From positions 1,313-65,312 of the IMG/VR virus record IMGVR_UViG_2824139951_000003: a stretch of DNA of 64,000 bases. One strand, given 5' to 3'. The notes under the pieces are model-generated. The model worked only from the letters and a program-made list of their open reading frames with translations. It was not told the DNA's origin and made no database searches. Within the stretch, counting starts at the first letter, position 1. Each line of letters opens with the position of its first letter. A program made the position numbers and the translations under genes. Source of the DNA: a virus. Its lineage: Duplodnaviria; Caudoviricetes. Positions 53,911 through 62,126 of the stretch are shown one piece after another.

Positions 53911-55091
53911 GCGAAACCAAAGAATTGACCGTTCCTGAGCGCGCCGCCGTTGCGCTGGGCACAGCGGAGCATGAGAAGAACCTGATCGCACTCTCGACGA
54001 AGTATGCCGACCTCGTGGAGATCAAGAATACGGCCGGCCGCGACCAGGTTCATTCGGCCTACATGGAACTGAAGAACACGCGTGTCGCGATCAAGAGTGC
54101 TGGCGAGGCCGCCCGCGAGGATGCAAACGCATTCCAGAAAGCTGTGATTGCTGAGGTGGCGCGATTGACGGCCATCACAGCAACGGAAGAGGCGCGGCTC
54201 CAGAAGCTCCGCGACGATTACGACGCCGAACGAGAACGCGAGAAGCAAGCCAAGGCAGAAGCCGAACGAGTGCGCGTCAACGCCATCCGCGTCCGCATTG
54301 ACGAGATGCGAACGATTCCTTCCGCGATGGTCGGCAAGACTGCCGAGCATATTGCTCGGTGCATTGAGGGTGTGGAGAAGTCGCCGGTCACGCTGGAGGA
54401 ATTCCAGGAATTCGCCGGGGAATGTGAGATGGCGAAAGTCGCCACGCTCGACAAGCTCCGCGAAATGCTTGCCGCTCAGCAAGCACATGAGCAGGAACAG
54501 GCTCGAATCGCTCAGGAGCGCGCTGAACTCGAACGACTCCGCGCCGAGGCTGCTGAGCGTGAACGTGTGGCCGCAGAAGAGCGCGCCGCACAAGAGGCTC
54601 GCGATCGCGCCGAACGCGAGCGCATCGCAGCCGAACAACGCGCGGCGCAGGAGAAGGCCGAGGCATCAATGCGCGTTGAACGCGAAGCACACGAAGCACG
54701 CATGGCTGCCGAGCGCGCCGAGATCGAGCGGCAACAAGCTGAAATCGCAGCAGCCAAAGCGGAGCAGGATCGCATCGAACGCGAGCGCCAGGAGGCGATT
54801 GAAGCCGAATCCCGCGCCAAGCGCGAGGCAGATGAGGCCGCAACGCGTGCCGAGGCGCAGCGAATCGAAGCCGAACAGCGCGCCGCAGTGCAAGAACAGA
54901 TGCGCCGCGAACAAGAGCAGTTTGCCGCCAACGGCCCTGGCGACGTGGAGCTCGTGAAGCTCCTAGCCCATCAGTACGACGTCGAAATTGGCGATGTGAT
55001 GGGCTGGATGAAGAAATTCGACTACGACGCAGCGGATGAGTATTTCGCTGCCGCGAACGTCGCAGCTAACCAAATGGAGAAAGCAGCATGA
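53907..55091 (+). CDS. Long coiled-coil protein preceding recombination genes
   Basis: E/A/R/Q-rich heptads; ATGA coupling. Confidence 0.8.
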   Translation: MSETKELTVPERAAVALGTAEHEKNLIALSTKYADLVEIKNTAGRDQVHSAYMELKNTRVAIKSAGEAAREDANAFQKAVIAEVARLTAITATEEARLQKLRDDYDAEREREKQAKAEAERVRVNAIRVRIDEMRTIPSAMVGKTAEHIARCIEGVEKSPVTLEEFQEFAGECEMAKVATLDKLREMLAAQQAHEQEQARIAQERAELERLRAEAAERERVAAEERAAQEARDRAERERIAAEQRAAQEKAEASMRVEREAHEARMAAERAEIERQQAEIAAAKAEQDRIERERQEAIEAESRAKREADEAATRAEAQRIEAEQRAAVQEQMRREQEQFAANGPGDVELVKLLAHQYDVEIGDVMGWMKKFDYDAADEYFAAANVAANQMEKAA

Positions 55092-55888
55092 GAGAAGCAA
55101 CGATGGCGGATGTGGTGGAGGTTGATCTGGCTCAGCCGGTAGCGGCAAAGCCTCCCGCAGTACAGCAGTCACATGCAGTCACGGCGGCATCCGCCACTCC
55201 GGCCGACCTTCTGCGCATCGCAGTCGAGAGCGGCGCGGACCTCGACAAATTGGAGCGTTTAATGGCGCTCCAAACGCAGTGGGAAGCGAAAGAGGCAAAG
55301 CGTGCCTTTGATGCGGCGTTCGCGGCATTCAAGGCCGAGTCAGTGACGATCCTGAAGGGCCGCAAGGTCACGGACGGACCACTTAAGGGCAAGAGCTACG
55401 CCGAGTTGCACGACGTCGTAAATGCTGTCACGCCTGCGCTATCGAAATATGGCCTTTCGTCGTCCTGGAAACTTACGCAGGACACAAAGGACTGGATGGA
55501 AGTGACGTGCTACCTGCGCCACGTCAACGGCCACGAAGAAAGCGTGTCTATGGGAGGCCCTCCCGACGCGGGCGGCGCGAAGAACGCAATCCAAGCCCGC
55601 GCCAGCACGAAGACTTACCTTGAGCGTTACACCCTCAAGGCGATCACAGGCCTGTCGGAGCAGATGGACGATGACGACGGCAACGGAAAGGCTCCGCAGG
55701 GCAATCCAGACGAAGTTTTCATGAAGTACGAGAGCCAGTTGCTGGAAGCCACGACGGCCGATGATGTGCGCCGCGTCCGAGCATTAGCCGGCGCCGCGTT
55801 CGAAGCAGTCAAGGATGTAAAGGGATGGAACCAGTTCAAGGCGATGGCAGATAAGAAGAAGGCCGAATTCGAAGGAGGTGCGAAGTGA
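55088..55888 (+). CDS. ERF-family ssDNA annealing protein
   Basis: YAELHDVV.AV.P.LSKYGL, L.H..GH.E, QA.AS..TY..RY.L.A..G. Confidence 0.88.
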   Translation: MREATMADVVEVDLAQPVAAKPPAVQQSHAVTAASATPADLLRIAVESGADLDKLERLMALQTQWEAKEAKRAFDAAFAAFKAESVTILKGRKVTDGPLKGKSYAELHDVVNAVTPALSKYGLSSSWKLTQDTKDWMEVTCYLRHVNGHEESVSMGGPPDAGGAKNAIQARASTKTYLERYTLKAITGLSEQMDDDDGNGKAPQGNPDEVFMKYESQLLEATTADDVRRVRALAGAAFEAVKDVKGWNQFKAMADKKKAEFEGGAK

Positions 55889-56532
55889 AGCGAAATTTCA
55901 TCGTCTCAGAACACCTGCAAAACACGCCTGAGTGGTTTGCTGATCGAAGCGGCCGTGCGACCGGCTCCAAGGCCAACTGCGTGACTGCCAAGATTAAATC
56001 GGGCGAAGCCGCTACGCGAGCCGACTATCGAGTCCAATTGGCGCTTGAGCGCCTGCTGTGCAAGCCGTGCGCCGATGAGTTCTCCAACGACGACACGGAC
56101 CGCGGTCACGATCGCGAGCCATTCGCTCGCATGAAGTACGAGATTAGAACCGGCATCACTGTCGAGCAGTGTGGCTTTGTCTATCGCGAAGACATGATGG
56201 TCGGGTGCAGCCCTGACGGGTTGCTTGAGGATGGCGGACGCCTCGGTTTGTGGGAGGGAAAGTGCCCGCGCAGCAAGACGCACTTCAAGTACCTGATTGA
56301 ACAGCGCGTGCCGCCGACGTATCAGAACCAAGTCTTGCACAACATGCTAGTGACTGGCGCGGAGTTTGTCGACTTCGTCAGTTTCGATCCAGACATGCCG
56401 GAAAAGCTTCAGTTGTTCATTTTCCGCTGGGAGCGCGATGAGGAATTGATCAAAGAGTATGAGATCGAGCTTCGCCAGTTCCTTCTTGAAGTTGACGCCA
56501 CCCACAAGCAAATTGCGGCGATGGCCGCCTGA
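55885..56532 (+). CDS. YqaJ/lambda-type exonuclease
   Basis: Q.TPEW...R.G..TGS, GCSPDGL, EGKCP, Y..QV, DFVSFDP. Confidence 0.92.
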   Translation: MKRNFIVSEHLQNTPEWFADRSGRATGSKANCVTAKIKSGEAATRADYRVQLALERLLCKPCADEFSNDDTDRGHDREPFARMKYEIRTGITVEQCGFVYREDMMVGCSPDGLLEDGGRLGLWEGKCPRSKTHFKYLIEQRVPPTYQNQVLHNMLVTGAEFVDFVSFDPDMPEKLQLFIFRWERDEELIKEYEIELRQFLLEVDATHKQIAAMAA

Positions 56533-56556
56533 TTCACCTTACACAAGAGCGAAACC

Positions 56557-57000
56557 ATGATTCAGATATTCGGACTGGCCCGTGTGGGCCGCGATGTTGA
56601 GGTGCGCAATACAACGAATGGCGATGCGGTCGCAAGCGTCTCGCTGGCCTTCAGTTACGGCCGCAAGGGCGACGATGGCAAGAAGCCGACGCAATGGGTT
56701 GATGGGGCACTCTGGGGCAAACGTGCCGAGGCGCTGGCACCATATCTCACGAAAGGTACCTTGGTAACGGTCGCGTGCGAAGACGCTCACATCGAGACAT
56801 TCCAGAAGCAGGGCGGCGGAGAGGGCGTGAAGCTGGCCGCACGCATCACGGCTATCGACTTGGCCGGGAACCCGCCGCAAGCCGCGCAGCAGCCGCAGCA
56901 ACGTCAGCAACAACGACAGGCGCCGCAACAACGCCAAGCTCATCAGAACATTCCTGCGGGCGGCGGCTTCGACGATATGCAAGACGACGTGCCTTTTTGA
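56557..57000 (+). CDS. ssb: Single-stranded DNA-binding protein
   Basis: GRDVEVR, WGKRAE.L..YL.KG, DDVPF tail. Confidence 0.93.
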   Translation: MIQIFGLARVGRDVEVRNTTNGDAVASVSLAFSYGRKGDDGKKPTQWVDGALWGKRAEALAPYLTKGTLVTVACEDAHIETFQKQGGGEGVKLAARITAIDLAGNPPQAAQQPQQRQQQRQAPQQRQAHQNIPAGGGFDDMQDDVPF

Positions 57001-57101
57001 TGACTACCGCCTCAGCGTCGCACGGATTGGCCAACCCGGCGTGCTCCCGATAAGTCGGTGCAGGGGCCCCATCTTGCCGGTCACTTCTGACGTGGCCCTC
57101 C

Positions 57102-57126
57102 ACGCCCGATGTCTGGGCGTTTTTTA
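57102..57126 (+). terminator. Rho-independent terminator
   Basis: acgccc-gatgtct-gggcgt plus T-run. Confidence 0.7.
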
Positions 57127-57172
57127 TTCCAGTTCCGTCGACGGCGCCCCCGTGCTCTCGGCGTGTGTCTTG

Positions 57173-57198
57173 ACCCGGCTTCGGCCGGGTTCTTTTTT
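57173..57198 (+). terminator. Second terminator with UUCG loop
   Basis: acccggc-ttcg-gccgggt-tctttttt. Confidence 0.75.
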
Positions 57199-57220
57199 GA
57201 ACCGCAAACCTGAGACGACC

Positions 57221-57481
57221 ATGAACTGCAACTGCGTTCGCGACAACGAGTCGCGCATTGCCGATCACTACACCGAATTGCTCGGCACGCCAGCGACGGC
57301 GCAAGCCAAGAACGTCGCTTTCATGCTGGGCAGCAAGGTGAGCGAGGCGGCCTATCTGCCGTACGCCGTCAAGGCCGACAAGCCGGGCTATCGCGGCGCG
57401 AAGGGCAAGGAGGTTTCGATGTTCTTCAGCTTCTGTCCCTTCTGCGGCAAGTCCACGGAAGATGAGCCTGCCAAAGCTTGA
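57221..57481 (+). CDS. Small Cys-containing protein
   Basis: MNCNC...FCPFCG. Confidence 0.75.
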   Translation: MNCNCVRDNESRIADHYTELLGTPATAQAKNVAFMLGSKVSEAAYLPYAVKADKPGYRGAKGKEVSMFFSFCPFCGKSTEDEPAKA

Positions 57482-57507
57482 ACCGCAACCGATTGAGTGA
57501 GGCCAGC

Positions 57508-57981
57508 ATGAGCTTGGTGATTGTTCCGATCGATTTGGCAGAGGCGAACGCATTCGTCTCCGTACACCATCGTCACCACAAGCCGGTTATCGGTCACAAA
57601 TTCAGTATTGCAGCCGCCGATCCAGGATTCTGGCTGATCGACACGAGAGCGCCAATCGTACGCGGTATCGCGATAGTCGGACGCCCCGTAGCGCGAGGCA
57701 ACGACGACGGCTGGACGCTTGAGGTGAACCGTTGCTGCACCGACGGCACCCGGAACGCGTGCTCAATGCTCTACGGCGCTGCGTGGCGCGCGGCGAAGGC
57801 GATGGGCTATGCGCGCCTCATCACTTACACGCTGCCGGCTGAAGGTGGCGCGAGTTTGCGCGCAGCTGGCTGGAAGCTAATCGGCCAGCGCGGCGGCGGC
57901 AACTGGAATACCCCGGCGCGCCCGCGCGTCGACACCGACGAACTGCTGCGAGGCCAGAAATCACTCTGGTCCGCCGCCTGA
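57508..57981 (+). CDS. XF1762-family protein
   Basis: EANAFV..HHRHHKP..GHKFS, GRPVAR..DDG.TLEV.R.CTDG..NACS.LY. Confidence 0.85.
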   Translation: MSLVIVPIDLAEANAFVSVHHRHHKPVIGHKFSIAAADPGFWLIDTRAPIVRGIAIVGRPVARGNDDGWTLEVNRCCTDGTRNACSMLYGAAWRAAKAMGYARLITYTLPAEGGASLRAAGWKLIGQRGGGNWNTPARPRVDTDELLRGQKSLWSAA

Positions 57982-58018
57982 CTCCCCACCCGTAACTAAG
58001 AAACAATCACAGATTCGC

Positions 58019-58150
58019 AACCCCGGCACGGCCCGGCGTGGAAAGGCCCGGCGGCGCCAGGCTAGGAGAGGCGAGGCGAGGTGCTACGGCAGTGCGTAGC
58101 GGGTCGGAGATTGGCAACAGTCTCCTTCCCGGTGCACACGGCGAGGGGTT
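58019..58150 (+). ncRNA. Candidate guide-like RNA (GGY/NN tract plus two hairpins, closed by AACCCC/GGGGTT)
   Basis: Intergenic; hairpins gctacg/cgtagc (58083-58100) and ggagattg-gcaa-cagtctcc (58106-58125); adjacent to RAMP-like gene. Confidence 0.7.
58025..58084 (+). repeat. 5-nt-periodic GGN-NN repeat tract (12 units)
   Basis: GGCAC GGCCC GGCGT GGAAA GGCCC GGCGG CGCCA GGCTA GGAGA GGCGA GGCGA GGTGC. Confidence 0.9.
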
Positions 58151-58168
58151 TAAGAATGAGGAACGGAA

Positions 58169-58783
58169 ATGACGACGACAACGAAATCGGACACGCGGCT
58201 GGAGAAGGTATCCAGAACGGTAGTGCTCAAGGGCGTGCGGGACATCATGTTCGACCGCTACGCGGGCGACAACAAGACGAAGCTGGAATGGCACCAGAAG
58301 ATCTATCAGGTGCCGGGCACGGACATTTTATGTCTGCCGGCCATCAATATTGTGTCGTTTCTCACCGCGCACAACACGAACAGCGCGCCGAAACGACTCC
58401 GGGACAAGCGGGCATACAAGGACATCGCTAACGCGTGCCTGAGCTTCACGAGCATCGTGGGCCACTCGATGAACCCGAACTATGTACCGATTCTCCGCGA
58501 TGGTTGCCCGGTGCGCGTCGGGAAGTTCGGGGACGATCGCGACGCGCTGAGCGGCATCTACCTGCATCGCTCCGTTGCGCGCCTCGACAAAGGCATTCCA
58601 AACCCGAAAGAGCGGCCTGTACTGCCCCTTCCGTGGTCGATCGAATTCACGCTTGATATTTTCCCGAACAAGGAAATCAAAGAGCAGGAGATTCGGAACC
58701 TCGTGGAGGAAGGCGGTTTGGCAATTGGCCTAGGCACGTTCCGCGGCGTGTTCGGCAAATTCATCATCGAATCGTGGGAGTGA
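58169..58783 (+). CDS. Orphan RAMP/Cas7-like RNA-binding protein (Vipr-like)
   Basis: VVLKGVRDIMF first strand, LCLPAINI, ERP.LP.PWSIEFTL, C-terminal G-rich loop GGLAIGLGTFRGVFGKF; GAGG RBS. Confidence 0.75.
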   Translation: MTTTTKSDTRLEKVSRTVVLKGVRDIMFDRYAGDNKTKLEWHQKIYQVPGTDILCLPAINIVSFLTAHNTNSAPKRLRDKRAYKDIANACLSFTSIVGHSMNPNYVPILRDGCPVRVGKFGDDRDALSGIYLHRSVARLDKGIPNPKERPVLPLPWSIEFTLDIFPNKEIKEQEIRNLVEEGGLAIGLGTFRGVFGKFIIESWE

Positions 58784-58785
58784 AA

Positions 58786-60510
58786 ATGGACAACCAACTG
58801 AAGCCGTGCCCGTTCTGCGGGAGCCGGAATATCAGCGAAGGCGAAGTGCTTTCGACTAACCCGAACGGCGCCGCATCCACGCAGTCGATGTGCCGCGAGT
58901 GCGGCGCGCTTGGGCCCGAAGCACATCTGCGCGACGGCGAAGTAGATTTCGGCGACGAGAAAGCAACGACTGCGTGGAACACGCGCGCCGCTCTCCCTTC
59001 CGATTCGGCGGGAGCGCCGCTGACCGATGTGCAGCGTGCAGCTATTCAGGCAGCGGTGGATACGGCGAGTCGAGTGCTGCGCGCAGGCGGCGACGGCGGC
59101 GATGAACTGAGCGATGCGGGCCTTCGCCGAGAATTGAAAGAATCGCGCGACATGCTGCGCGATATGCTCGCCGATCCCGTCGCCCCTGCTGCGCCGTTCG
59201 ACATGCTGGCGCATCTGGCGCGTCAGCGTGAATTCTCGGAGCGCACGTTCGGCCCCGGCGCGCGCACGAAAGGCGTCTGCGATCACATTCGCAAGGAACT
59301 GGTCGAGATCGAAAGCAATCCGGCCGATCTCACCGAATGGATCGACGTGGTGATTCTCGCGCTCGACGGCGCATGGCGCGCGGGCGGCTCGCCACAGCAG
59401 ATCATTGACGCTATCGTTGCGAAGCAGACGAAGAACGAAGGACGCACGTGGCCTGACTGGCGCACCGTCGATCCCAACAAGGCTATCGAGCATGACCGAT
59501 CGCACGATACCTGCGCTCAGTGCGAAGGGAAAGGCACAGTTTTGTTCCGCGAACCCGAAGACGCGTGGGACATGGCGTGCGGTATGTGCGACGGAACCGG
59601 CCGCGCCGCTCGTACGCCCACCGTCGCCGCAGATGCGGCAGCGCCGATAAGCCAGGGGTCTACGGTTGATGTGGATGCCGAGACCGTGAAGATGGTCGAC
59701 GAGGAATTTTGGAACCTGATCGACACGAAGGTAGCGCAGCCCGACGATAACGATGTCGCATGCTCGTCGTGTGGCTTGACGATGGCTGAATCGCGCACCT
59801 TGTTCGCATTGAAGGCGCAGCCCGACGACCGCGCGGCGTTGCCAGCAGGATGGAAGCTCGTGCGTGTCAATCAGCACTTCGATGCGCTGATCGAAGCATT
59901 GGAGCACGCCGAAAGCAAAGGTTATCTGCCGGATGCCTTGAAGGAAGAATGGGCCAGTTTCGCGTGCGATGAGAACGTAGCGCAGCCCGACGAGCGCGCG
60001 GCAGCACCGCAAGCAGCGCTGACGGATGAGCAGCTTGCAGGCCTCGCGTATCGCAACTGCTCGAAATATGGCGACAACCCGAAGCGCGAATACCGCAGTT
60101 ACACGTTCGGAGTTCGTGCGCTGCGCAACTTCGCAGATTCACTTCTCGCCACGCCGCCAACCGAGCGCATGAGCGACGCAATGCGCGATGTGATCGCCGA
60201 GAGAGGCCGACAGGTGAGCGGGGAAGGATTCACGCCGACGCGTGATGACAGCTACGCAGACGGCCAGCTTGCGCAAGCTGGGGCTGCATATGCCATCGCA
60301 GTTGCCGACCACACGAACCACATTATCAACAGTGGCGCGGCTTTCTATACGCGTTCGCCCGACATTTGGCCGTGGTCCGAGAAGTGGTGGAAGCCAACTA
60401 ATCCGCGACGCGCACTCGTGAAGGCAGCAGCCCTGATCCTCGCTGAGATCGAGCGTATCGACCGCGCCGCCCGCAAAGCCGAGATCGAGCGCAGCGGAGA
60501 AAAATCATGA
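58786..60510 (+). CDS. Mosaic protein: Lar-like Zn finger, DUF550-like (MazG-type) dNTP pyrophosphohydrolase, Zn fingers, conserved C-terminal phage domain
   Basis: LKPCPFCG; FSERTFGPG...DHIRKEL.EIE...EW.DV.ILALDG; DVIAER.RQ...WPW...WWKP...LVKAAALILAEIERIDR. Confidence 0.82.
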   Translation: MDNQLKPCPFCGSRNISEGEVLSTNPNGAASTQSMCRECGALGPEAHLRDGEVDFGDEKATTAWNTRAALPSDSAGAPLTDVQRAAIQAAVDTASRVLRAGGDGGDELSDAGLRRELKESRDMLRDMLADPVAPAAPFDMLAHLARQREFSERTFGPGARTKGVCDHIRKELVEIESNPADLTEWIDVVILALDGAWRAGGSPQQIIDAIVAKQTKNEGRTWPDWRTVDPNKAIEHDRSHDTCAQCEGKGTVLFREPEDAWDMACGMCDGTGRAARTPTVAADAAAPISQGSTVDVDAETVKMVDEEFWNLIDTKVAQPDDNDVACSSCGLTMAESRTLFALKAQPDDRAALPAGWKLVRVNQHFDALIEALEHAESKGYLPDALKEEWASFACDENVAQPDERAAAPQAALTDEQLAGLAYRNCSKYGDNPKREYRSYTFGVRALRNFADSLLATPPTERMSDAMRDVIAERGRQVSGEGFTPTRDDSYADGQLAQAGAAYAIAVADHTNHIINSGAAFYTRSPDIWPWSEKWWKPTNPRRALVKAAALILAEIERIDRAARKAEIERSGEKS

Positions 60511-60806
60511 GCACGCGCCGAGAATATCCGCGCGTTGGAAGTGATCATTCTATCAAGCGCGGTCAGTGTTCGTGCTGCAACCGATTTGCAACGAGAAAGG
60601 TCGACATACAAGTTAGCTGGTTTCGGGGCGATGACGAAGTGCTGCAACTTTGCGAGCTGCACTACGCATTCGTCGGAAAGCAGGCATGGAAGGAATTATT
60701 CGATGCAGCTACTGCCGAAAAGGATCGCCGCAGGAAGAATAACGAGATAGCGCGTGAGCGTTCGGCACAACGCAAGGCGCTTAAGGCGCAAGGAGCACAG
60801 TCATGA
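60507..60806 (+). CDS. Zn-finger hypothetical protein
   Basis: CSCC...WFRGDDEV..LC..H. Confidence 0.7.
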   Translation: MSTRREYPRVGSDHSIKRGQCSCCNRFATRKVDIQVSWFRGDDEVLQLCELHYAFVGKQAWKELFDAATAEKDRRRKNNEIARERSAQRKALKAQGAQS

Positions 60807-61096
60807 GCACGCGCGAACAGTTCGAGGCGTGGTTTGCCGAATATCACGATGATGCCTGCACGAATTTCGGCGGCATCGACTGCACGAACCCGAAGGGTAT
60901 TGCGGAAGATGCATGGCAAGCCTCGCGCGCCGCAGCGATGGAGGAGGGGGCGACCACTGCGCTTTCGAAACTCAAGGCTCTCACAACCGAGATGGAGGGA
61001 TATGCCTACTTCGGCAGCAATCCCGGCGTAAAAGAGGATGACTACGAGGACGTAGCCGACGCCATCCGCGCTCTCGCCAAGGCAGAAGGAGATTGA
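60803..61096 (+). CDS. Hypothetical protein
   Basis: REQFEAW...AWQASRAAA.EE...ADAIRAL. Confidence 0.7.
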   Translation: MSTREQFEAWFAEYHDDACTNFGGIDCTNPKGIAEDAWQASRAAAMEEGATTALSKLKALTTEMEGYAYFGSNPGVKEDDYEDVADAIRALAKAEGD

Positions 61097-61097
61097 A

Positions 61098-61514
61098 ATG
61101 GCCGAAGACGCATTGAAGCGCTATGTGCTAACCGTACCGGAATTCCCCGATGAGCCATACATGGCAGAACATCCGGCTGGAGCGTGGGTAGAGCATCGGG
61201 ACTACCGAGCCATGGTTGAAAAATTCGAAGTGGCTGATCAAGAGCTGCGAAGCTATTTGGCGGAGGTTTCGGATCAACTGATCTATGCCCGTCGCGATCT
61301 GGCGGCGCTCCGCGAAGACATCGAATCGCAAATCAGGATCGCAAGTGAAGAGGCTGCGCGGGCGGATTCATTCGGGAGGGACACGGCGCGGTATCGGTGG
61401 ATTCGAAACGGGCATATCTGCATAGGCCGTCAATCGACTTTGCTGATGACGGGCGGCGCGCTCGATGATGCGATCGATGCGGCTATTTCGAAGGAGAAGG
61501 AGCAAACATCATGA
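61098..61514 (+). CDS. Hypothetical protein
   Basis: D.ARYRW.R...LD.AIDAA. Confidence 0.7.
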   Translation: MAEDALKRYVLTVPEFPDEPYMAEHPAGAWVEHRDYRAMVEKFEVADQELRSYLAEVSDQLIYARRDLAALREDIESQIRIASEEAARADSFGRDTARYRWIRNGHICIGRQSTLLMTGGALDDAIDAAISKEKEQTS

Positions 61515-61981
61515 AAATGGCCCGCGCAAGCGACGCGGATATCGATGCCGTGCTTGAAATCTCGCAGATCCTCAGTGACCTTGACCGAGGCTACATGCCC
61601 GCGTCAGACGAGGACGAGCGTATCGAGTGGTTCGATGAAGACGACGCCGAGCAGTGTCAAGTGGTTCTGAAGAAGATCCTCAAAGTGTGCCAAAAGGGGA
61701 ATGTCTTCCGCGTCGCGTTCGGCATGGCCGTCGTGCTAGATCCGCGAAACGAATTGCTCGACCCGGATGCCGATACGATTGAAGTGCATCCGAAGATCGT
61801 GGCAGCGATGAAGAGTGACGAGCGCTATCAATGGCTTCGCCGCCGTGCCGTGATGATCGACGGCTCCAGCGATACCGCAATGACGCTCACGCTGTTCTAC
61901 GACGAGGGGCCAACCGGCGAATTTCTGGACGATCAGATTGATGATTTCCTCAAGGCCCAAGGCAAGGAGGCCCAATGCTAG
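61511..61981 (+). CDS. Hypothetical protein
   Basis: MKMARAS.AD...; ERYQWLR. Confidence 0.7.
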   Translation: MKMARASDADIDAVLEISQILSDLDRGYMPASDEDERIEWFDEDDAEQCQVVLKKILKVCQKGNVFRVAFGMAVVLDPRNELLDPDADTIEVHPKIVAAMKSDERYQWLRRRAVMIDGSSDTAMTLTLFYDEGPTGEFLDDQIDDFLKAQGKEAQC

Positions 61982-62126
61982 GCGATATGTGCAGCCACGG
62001 TATTACGTGGTCTTGTCAGTGTAAGGAATGCGATCTCGTCTCTGCGAGGGAATTCGTGAAGCGATGGGGACCACAGGTCGATGAGTATCGCAAGCTGATT
62101 GAACAGGAAGAGAAACGGGAGGAAGC

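Follow-up and report, generated by a model that had tools for sequence, protein, structure and literature searches.

The stretch of DNA analysed here (the window, 64,000 nucleotides) makes up nearly all of a 65-kb IMG/VR provirus. In its rightward early operon, the 187-nt gap between a Mom-like gene and an ORF of 204 aa holds an array of phased pentamers and, directly after it, two predicted hairpins. The genes and features of the region are the following:

55088–55888, rightward: RecT-like gene of the early operon
55885–56532, rightward: exonuclease gene of the early operon
56557–57000, rightward: SSB gene of the early operon
57221–57481, rightward: small zinc-ribbon ORF (86 aa), directly upstream of the Mom-like gene
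57508–57981, rightward: Mom-like DNA-modification gene (phrog_1384; weak Pfam Mom match)
57972–57996, + strand: left boundary 'island', a conserved block of 25 nt within which the stop codon (57979–57981) of the Mom-like gene lies
58022–58069, + strand: predicted guide part of the vrRNA, variable and made of ten Y-NN-GG units, with a 20/20 gapless match to phage contig L058
58070–58131, + strand: predicted conserved 3′ tail of the vrRNA, i.e. GGCGA GGCGA GGTGC followed by hairpins 1 and 2
58083–58100, + strand: predicted tail hairpin 1, GCTACG/CGTAGC stem
58106–58125, + strand: predicted tail hairpin 2, 8-bp stem with GCAA loop, enclosed in an outer CGGG/CCCG stem (58100–58103/58128–58131)
58169–58783, + strand: vipr gene, 204 aa, minimal Cas7-like RAMP as judged from the ORF, a profile and an AF2 model
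58774–60510, rightward: fusion ORF of 578 aa, overlapping the end of vipr

The ORFs of the wider region (54000–62000) comprise phage recombination, SSB, Com/Mom-like, Lar/MazG-like and small unknown genes, with no CRISPR array or other cas genes among them, and a tandem-repeat scan of 55000–61000 returned short repeats only. The zinc-ribbon ORF and the Mom-like gene, taken together (57221–57981), bear what we take to be a resemblance to the com-mom pair of phage Mu. The 578-aa ORF has a Lar restriction-alleviation domain at its N terminus and a phage domain of unknown function at its C terminus, along with a dATP/dGTP pyrophosphohydrolase domain and a DnaJ-type zinc finger; since homologues are also present in relatives that are devoid of Vipr (contigs L058, L080, L186 and L189), it is probably not specific to the system described below.

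The array, the adjoining gene and the tail

Positions 58025–58084 consist of 12 in-phase GGYNN pentamers (in order, GGCAC GGCCC GGCGT GGAAA GGCCC GGCGG CGCCA GGCTA GGAGA GGCGA GGCGA GGTGC), 11 of which start with GG, the exception being unit 7 (CGCCA); the third base of the 12 units is C in nine cases, A in two and T in one. Nowhere else in the whole 64-kb window, whichever strand is read, do GG pentamers stay in phase for as many as six units, the runners-up having five and four; when 64 kb were simulated 100 times under a first-order Markov model, the longest GG run had a mean of 5.0 units and a maximum of 7, as compared with 11 here. Tandem Repeats Finder picks up the 3′ end of the array only, and a permissive Rfam scan of 55000–61000 yielded four sub-threshold matches, none of which overlaps it.

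The product of the downstream gene is, on the grounds of sequence comparison and of its modelled fold, a stand-alone RAMP of the Vipr family. The AF2 model of the 204-aa protein (pLDDT 86.6) has Csm3/Cmr4 chains of type III CRISPR complexes as its top PDB matches in Foldseek (E ~2e-6), and in BFVD it is similar to three small RAMP-like proteins of phages (TM 0.54–0.67). A profile of 30 homologues matches one PDB sequence, namely 36pp_D, annotated as 'SUSP1 Vipr protein' (E = 1.3e-4), in the region of the G-loop; this C-terminal glycine-rich loop, GLGTFRGVFGKF, in which the product ends, is strongly conserved in the alignment of relatives (A1, 30 sequences with 44 invariant columns). Pfam gave no match for the protein, and PHROGs a weak C-terminal match to phrog_4652 and nothing else. 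Its database relatives number 2391 at E ≤ 0.001 (of 2817 candidates of similar length), and the names among the 120 matches listed are 'hypothetical' or 'uncharacterized' throughout. Because of the Cas7-like RAMP fold, along with the profile match to SUSP1 Vipr, the locus is assigned to the VIPR systems, which are made of a vrRNA and Vipr.

The association of array and gene extends well beyond the window. A set of 56 loci with a vipr homologue was assembled from the window, the phage vB_E436, 34 viral contigs and 20 contigs of genomes, the latter ranging from Paraburkholderia to Planctomycetota and Desulfovibrio. In 55 of them, the fetched flanks hold one or several arrays in which GG recurs in phase over six units or more, and the single locus that is devoid of an array, L037, is cut inside the gene. 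Given this pairing, a sequence-only reading of the window, according to which the variable dinucleotides are a guide code giving a testable target, is upheld, with the array as the vrRNA of a VIPR system beside a Vipr-like RAMP. Arrays occur upstream and/or downstream of vipr, often several per locus, and share its strand in 241 of the 247 cases of a larger set; the third base, counted across 1824 units, is C in 83%, A in 9%, T in 6% and G in 2% (C/T in 88%), and all 16 NN dinucleotides are used.

The same reading had listed the NN series of the window as AC CC GT AA CC GG CA TA GA GA GA GC, which is exact for the letters at 58025–58084. As a target, the series holds for units 1–9, but one CC had been missed and the last three units turn out to be tail. 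In the YNNGG register, this CC (58023–58024) precedes the first GG and participates in the target match, and the last three units, GGCGA GGCGA GGTGC (58070–58084), are the same in relatives with different guides and have no match to targets. Since GA GA GC lies in the constant tail, outside the target matches, and the extra CC is to be added, the informative series becomes CC AC CC GT AA CC GG CA TA GA, with the letters at:

58023–24, 58028–29, 58033–34, 58038–39, 58043–44, 58048–49, 58053–54, 58058–59, 58063–64 and 58068–69, + strand: NN positions of the guide

Beyond its three constant pentamers, the tail is predicted to fold into the two hairpins listed above (MFE −37.7 kcal/mol, z = −2.4). 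Paired changes are seen among three full sequences, i.e. G-C to A-T in hairpin 1 and GGAGA/TCTCC to GGGGA/TCCCC in hairpin 2, and this covariation is suggestive of both stems.

Several comparisons separate the parts of the locus. The tail is kept behind different guides in the closest relatives, L003 and L004. The same tail is also found from 58070 in X2, another strain with the same species label, and from 58060 in X4, with other guides in front. The X2 DNA contig aligns with 57971/57972–57996, then carries 90 different letters in place of 57997–58069 and realigns from 58070 through vipr with 13 differences, and the X4 metatranscriptome contig has yet another pentamer series joined to the identical tail. 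Taken together, these comparisons lead to a cassette with a left boundary that is conserved, a guide that can be swapped, a tail that stays constant, and vipr. In a second X2 contig the same 25-nt block is followed by 1018 other letters, where the window has the 789 nt of vrRNA and vipr, and the alignment resumes at 58786. As an observation apart, two alleles of the region between the boundaries at 57971–57996 and 58786–58824 are found in the X2 strain (runs X2 and X21), and the site is a hotspot of cargo exchange.

The vipr locus of a related prophage is transcribed in the lysogen: stranded RNA reads from a related strain lie on the + strand, with a depth of ~20–37 over a near-identical vipr and of ~2 over the tail, and three reads extend into the array. 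The vrRNA as a discrete small RNA is a prediction. A promoter/terminator scan of 57850–58250 found nothing, a sigma-70-like promoter included, so that the vrRNA may arise by processing of the transcript of the operon. Between tail and gene, the segment at 58138–58165, ACGGCGAGGGGTTTAAGAATGAGGAAC, resembles the 3′ end of a second, vipr-proximal type of array in vB_E436, L006 and L038 (..GGCGAGGGCT..ATGAGGAAC), and may be what is left of a second vrRNA that has been lost; two arrays are found upstream of vipr in both L006 and L038.

Decoding of the window guide

VIPR systems have been described as the combination of Vipr, an ancestral RAMP of ~20 kDa, with vrRNAs of 9–16 YNNGG repeats and a conserved tail (10.64898/2026.04.26.720920). 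A locus of this kind has four or more tandem YNNGG units beside vipr, and its vrRNA is expressed as an RNA of ~100 nt that co-purifies with Vipr. In the published type II rule, the NN dinucleotides pair with dsDNA while one target base is skipped per unit, the skip usually falling on the codon wobble position, and the targets are competing phages and satellites, with no self-targeting (10.64898/2026.04.26.720920). A cryo-EM preprint places the skipped base in a one-nucleotide pocket between the alpha-bundle and the thumb of SUSP1 Vipr; further preprints comprise a SUSP1-satellite study and a language-model survey that recovered 99 VIPR-like clusters. The decoding put forward in the sequence-only reading (one base skipped per unit, the gap being aligned with the wobble position) is the same as this published rule.

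For the window guide, the collections searched give it no support. When the exact nine-unit 18-mer was searched in the viral_contigs collection, skip 0 gave one match (L058) and skip 1, with units 1–9, none. The match to L058 covers 20 of 20 letters, including those of the pentamer before the first GG unit, runs to unit 9 and ends at the boundary between guide and tail. As a consequence, the one-base skip of that reading is not sustained, and with it fall the wobble-aligned peptide that had been read from the series and the argument that targeting would be insensitive to synonymous escape.

L058 is a 40-kb phage contig that is collinear with the window (RecT-like gene, exonuclease and short conserved patches of DNA in the same order) and is without vipr at that place. 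The target is on the sense strand, with 2 nt between its end and the ATG with which a small early gene starts, and lies at the syntenic spot, where it spans the breakpoint between the shared 25-nt block (24/25 identical) and an 87-aa ORF (phrog_28528). This block is the island that forms the left boundary of the window cassette, its last 11 nt (57986–57996) being the first 11 nt of the zero-skip target. The island is the sole BLAST-alignable patch in this neighbourhood between the window and L058, and its intact form, with 2–3 mismatches allowed, is confined to the window and L058/L215. L058 (from the viral contigs) and L215 (a metagenome record) are the same contig of 40,242 bp, which is the sole in-context target of the window guide.

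The window itself has no comparable site: self-matches reach at most 14/18 when no base is skipped and 12/18 with one skipped base, shuffled guides giving ~13 (13.2 at skip 1), so that no skip rule does better than a shuffled guide, and the window's own flank matches the guide at 12/18. The window's own copy of the junction matches the first half of the guide only, and on this account the prophage would spare itself.

Other collections added background rather than targets. Ten exact matches of the window 18-mer are found in metagenome_contigs, one being the L058 contig with the junction context and nine being unrelated; the CC that precedes the 18-mer is absent from all nine of the latter. Among 401 Burkholderiaceae genomes there is no exact match, and matches with up to two mismatches are about as frequent as with a reversed-pattern control; one of these background matches, with two mismatches, is in the unpublished genome G221, and no claim depends on it. 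The sequence ..CCCGTTACCGGCATAGA.. that recurs in Burkholderiaceae sits in a conserved chromosomal gene and was set aside as background. No GenBank phage record was found with the target junction of the window guide or of the guide of L107, one of the sibling guides described below.

Sibling guides and the weighing of rival readings

In a local test, every guide was compared with the fetched loci, with arrays masked, at skips 0–3 and with shuffled controls. Within the Burkholderia subclade, represented by 12 distinct arrays with 70 windows of eight units, exact window matches numbered seven at skip 0, corresponding to three guide–target pairs, and none at skips 1–3; shuffled means were 0.02–0.08, and none of 300 shuffles reached the count at skip 0. 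Thus, the comparison of gap sizes 0–3 with shuffled NN that the sequence-only reading had called for shows, within the subclade, enrichment at gap 0 only. The pair formed by the window and L058 had been brought in by the skip-0 scan itself, so that the unbiased pairs are L106 with L107 and the E436-type guides with L080. The L106 guide matches L107 over a 21-nt run located ~65 nt upstream of L107's own array. The E436-type guides (L116) match L080, also over 21 nt, at codons 6–12 of a 468-aa ORF; this target region recurs with 100% identity in 22 records of Burkholderia phages in GenBank and, in phiE12-2, corresponds to the 5′ end of gp17, with the methyltransferase gene gp16 and the replication gene gp15 downstream.

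Two further guides were followed across the whole collection at skip 0. The L107 guide matches 14 contigs, with a 22-nt run and the same flanks in all 14, at a site where the end of a Lar-like or other gene overlaps a GTG start and diverse genes follow; at skip 1 it has one match, which is unrelated. In three of the 14 (L186, L187 and L189), Mom-like or MazG-like homologues lie beside the site, which is the zone of the window's cassette. The L109 guide matches ten contigs: seven are GC-rich phages with shared flanks, where the runs are of 20–27 nt and cover the Shine–Dalgarno sequence and the ATG, and three are AT-rich contigs, in which the match stays at exactly 18 nt and which look like one chance family. 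Overall, the gapless in-context runs of five subclade guides measure 20–27 nt, and all targets are on the sense strand, like the local genes; with this orientation, the RNA would pair with the template strand of the DNA and could not pair with the mRNA. The targets fall in the corresponding early-operon zone of relatives, and no vipr match or array was found in the fetched flanks of any target contig.

The sites of the sibling guides (L185–L198, L200 and L202–L207) share a further trait, as they are sequences of 25–40 nt that are conserved between otherwise different flanking genes, at a gene end, ribosome-binding site or start codon. The comparison suggests that the guides aim at conserved linkers at the module junctions of mosaic temperate phages.

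All five positive guides belong to this one subclade. When the test was extended to all clades, L058 being left out, nine units gave 3, 0, 2 and 2 exact matches at skips 0, 1, 2 and 3, values that were reached by 0, 100, 4 and 0 of 100 shuffles, respectively, and ten units gave 1, 0, 1 and 0; with eight units skip 0 is not enriched (5 vs 2.9; 23 of 100 shuffles) and skip 3 is nominally high (8 vs 3.1). The skip-2 match joins L165 (10824–10903) to L135 (11709) at 20/20, with 1 of 100 shuffles reaching it at ten units; the L165 guide is G-rich, and the L135 site falls in a tail-fibre-like ORF that appears AT-rich by eye. The skip-3 match joins L057 (2848–2937) to L155/L156 at 18/18. These isolated skip-2 and skip-3 matches, between distant clade members and coding DNA that looks unrelated, are probably due to chance, skip lengths specific to a clade being the less likely reading.

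In the light of these data, it is quite likely, although the argument is built on sequence comparison, that the window locus is a VIPR system with its vrRNA at 58022–58131 and Vipr at 58169–58783, the NN dinucleotides of which would read an uninterrupted 20-base target with zero skip. One alternative is a vrRNA that obeys the published one-skip rule, with a true target of the type AC.CC.GT... that is aligned with the wobble positions of a coding sequence which the searched collections do not contain. The rule itself has been demonstrated, experimentally and structurally, for the VIPR systems of SUSP1 and P. fulva (2026 preprints), and the collection-wide scans accepted exact matches only, so that imperfect one-skip targets would be missed. 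However, one-skip decoding gives no match in the subclade test and none in the all-clade nine-unit test, and it sets no exact match of the window guide, and the lone unrelated match of the L107 guide, against the 14 that the latter has at skip 0; it also leaves unexplained why five sibling guides have gapless runs of 20–27 nt at syntenic sites in related phages. We therefore regard it as improbable.

A different objection concerns not the length of the matches but what they stand for: they might be footprints of the origin or recombination of the arrays (e.g. guides built from the neighbouring junction) instead of present-day binding sites. The proximity of the targets to the position of the cassette in relatives speaks for such an origin, as does the presence of the first 11 nt of the window's 20-nt match in its own left flank (57986–57996). 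It is, however, difficult to reconcile with the L107 and L109 guides, which match 14 and 7 contigs in the fetched flanks of which neither vipr nor an array was found, with the E436-type guide, the matches of which are in a family of P2-like phages that has no relation to the site of the cassette, with matches that stop exactly at the boundary between guide and tail, and with the avoidance of self-matches; besides, such a mechanism of genesis would anyway yield guides complementary to those contiguous sequences. The footprint explanation is accordingly given very little weight.

The TRAP protein of Bacillus recognizes a conserved triplet with a 2-nt spacer, repeated ~11 times in RNA, and a leader of this type, in which a ring or filament protein binds the conserved triplets to autoregulate the downstream gene and the NN are meaningless spacers, would account for a triplet-plus-2-nt periodicity directly upstream of a gene, but it is scarcely credible here, where the NN strings are informative (20–27-nt matches to other phages that are absent in shuffled controls), many relatives have their arrays downstream of the gene and in multiple copies, and the window protein is a RAMP and not of a TRAP-like fold; the likeness is one of pattern only. 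G-quadruplex or R-loop DNA was likewise dropped, as the NN strings carry target information.

Relation to known systems and possible role

Zero-skip decoding by the VIPR system of the window would leave the locus within a known kind of system, of which it represents, from the sequence matches, a probable new variant of the code. The closest systems are the type II VIPR of Escherichia phage SUSP1 and of a Pseudomonas fulva prophage (10.64898/2026.04.26.720920,.720927, 2026.10.15.759431), where, as here, a small phage RAMP adjoins a GGY/NN RNA with a structured tail, the NN are hypervariable between near-identical cassettes, and competing phages are targeted while self is spared. The differences lie in the targets, which are uninterrupted (zero skip) here and of the NNx form there, and which here are not wobble-aligned, three of the five covering a ribosome-binding/start-codon junction or a gene end. 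Furthermore, all five guides here match the sense strand, whereas either strand has been reported for SUSP1; the window locus has a single vrRNA and no recognizable accessory (vap) gene, which is a typical though not universal neighbour of vipr; and the sequence identity between the window Vipr and SUSP1 Vipr is too low for tblastn. In the portions of text available for the 2026 VIPR preprints, there is no mention of a Vipr clade with contiguous targets.

A more distant relation is to the effectors of class 1 CRISPR systems, the Cas7 backbone subunits of which (Csm3/Cmr4) are the best structural matches of the predicted window fold. Cas7-type proteins have an RRM core, a thumb and a glycine-rich loop, with one protomer per guide repeat. 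In contrast to these effectors, the window array has a period of 5 nt instead of 6 nt, three of the five guide bases would be sequestered, and vipr sits in a phage early operon.

By analogy with SUSP1 and P. fulva, one Vipr protomer per pentamer would sequester GGY and present NN for pairing with one strand of dsDNA, and the Vipr filament on the DNA would block transcription of the competing phage; in the clade of the window, the target strand would be read without flipped bases. With conserved junction/start regions of early operons as the chosen sites, a lysogen could silence incoming or co-resident sibling phages, and exclusion or silencing of sibling temperate phages by the lysogen is the likely role. 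The window guide, which straddles the boundary where its own cassette replaces another gene, would in this way tell self from the alternative allele.

A wider proposal, towards which we lean only slightly, is that a large Vipr clade (2391 proteins at E ≤ 0.001) stores its guide in GGY/NN pentamers and yet reads unbroken DNA of 20–27 nt, the skip length being specific to the clade and the guides being aimed at the junction/start sequences of sibling early operons. In the case of the window, the cassette would silence the 'other allele' and its own insertion would protect the carrier, which would amount to a homing-like exclusion.

When VIPR was presented in 2026, it was as the first RNA-guided system whose target code is noncontiguous, and three published arguments hinge on the one-base skip: the model of the structure, the argument from wobble and escape, and the way targets are predicted. 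Should contiguous targets prove to be read by a large clade, skip 0 must be tried when targets are predicted for many VIPR loci, the rationale based on wobble would not be general, and some Vipr filament must be able to pair two of five guide bases to an unbroken strand. A protein of ~23 kDa with an RNA of ~100 nt that recognizes an ordinary 20-nt sequence would also be a simpler programmable binder. The decoding leads to named predictions of phage–phage exclusion, such as that of phiE12-2-like phages by vB_E436-type guides, and it indicates conserved module junctions as a battleground between phages.

Finally, some relatives carry very long arrays (26–39 units) or have as many as 11 arrays in succession next to vipr (L025, 2574–2703; L030, 2777–2971 and 3616–3775; L040, 1552–2839), which are possibly multi-guide or staggered arrays.
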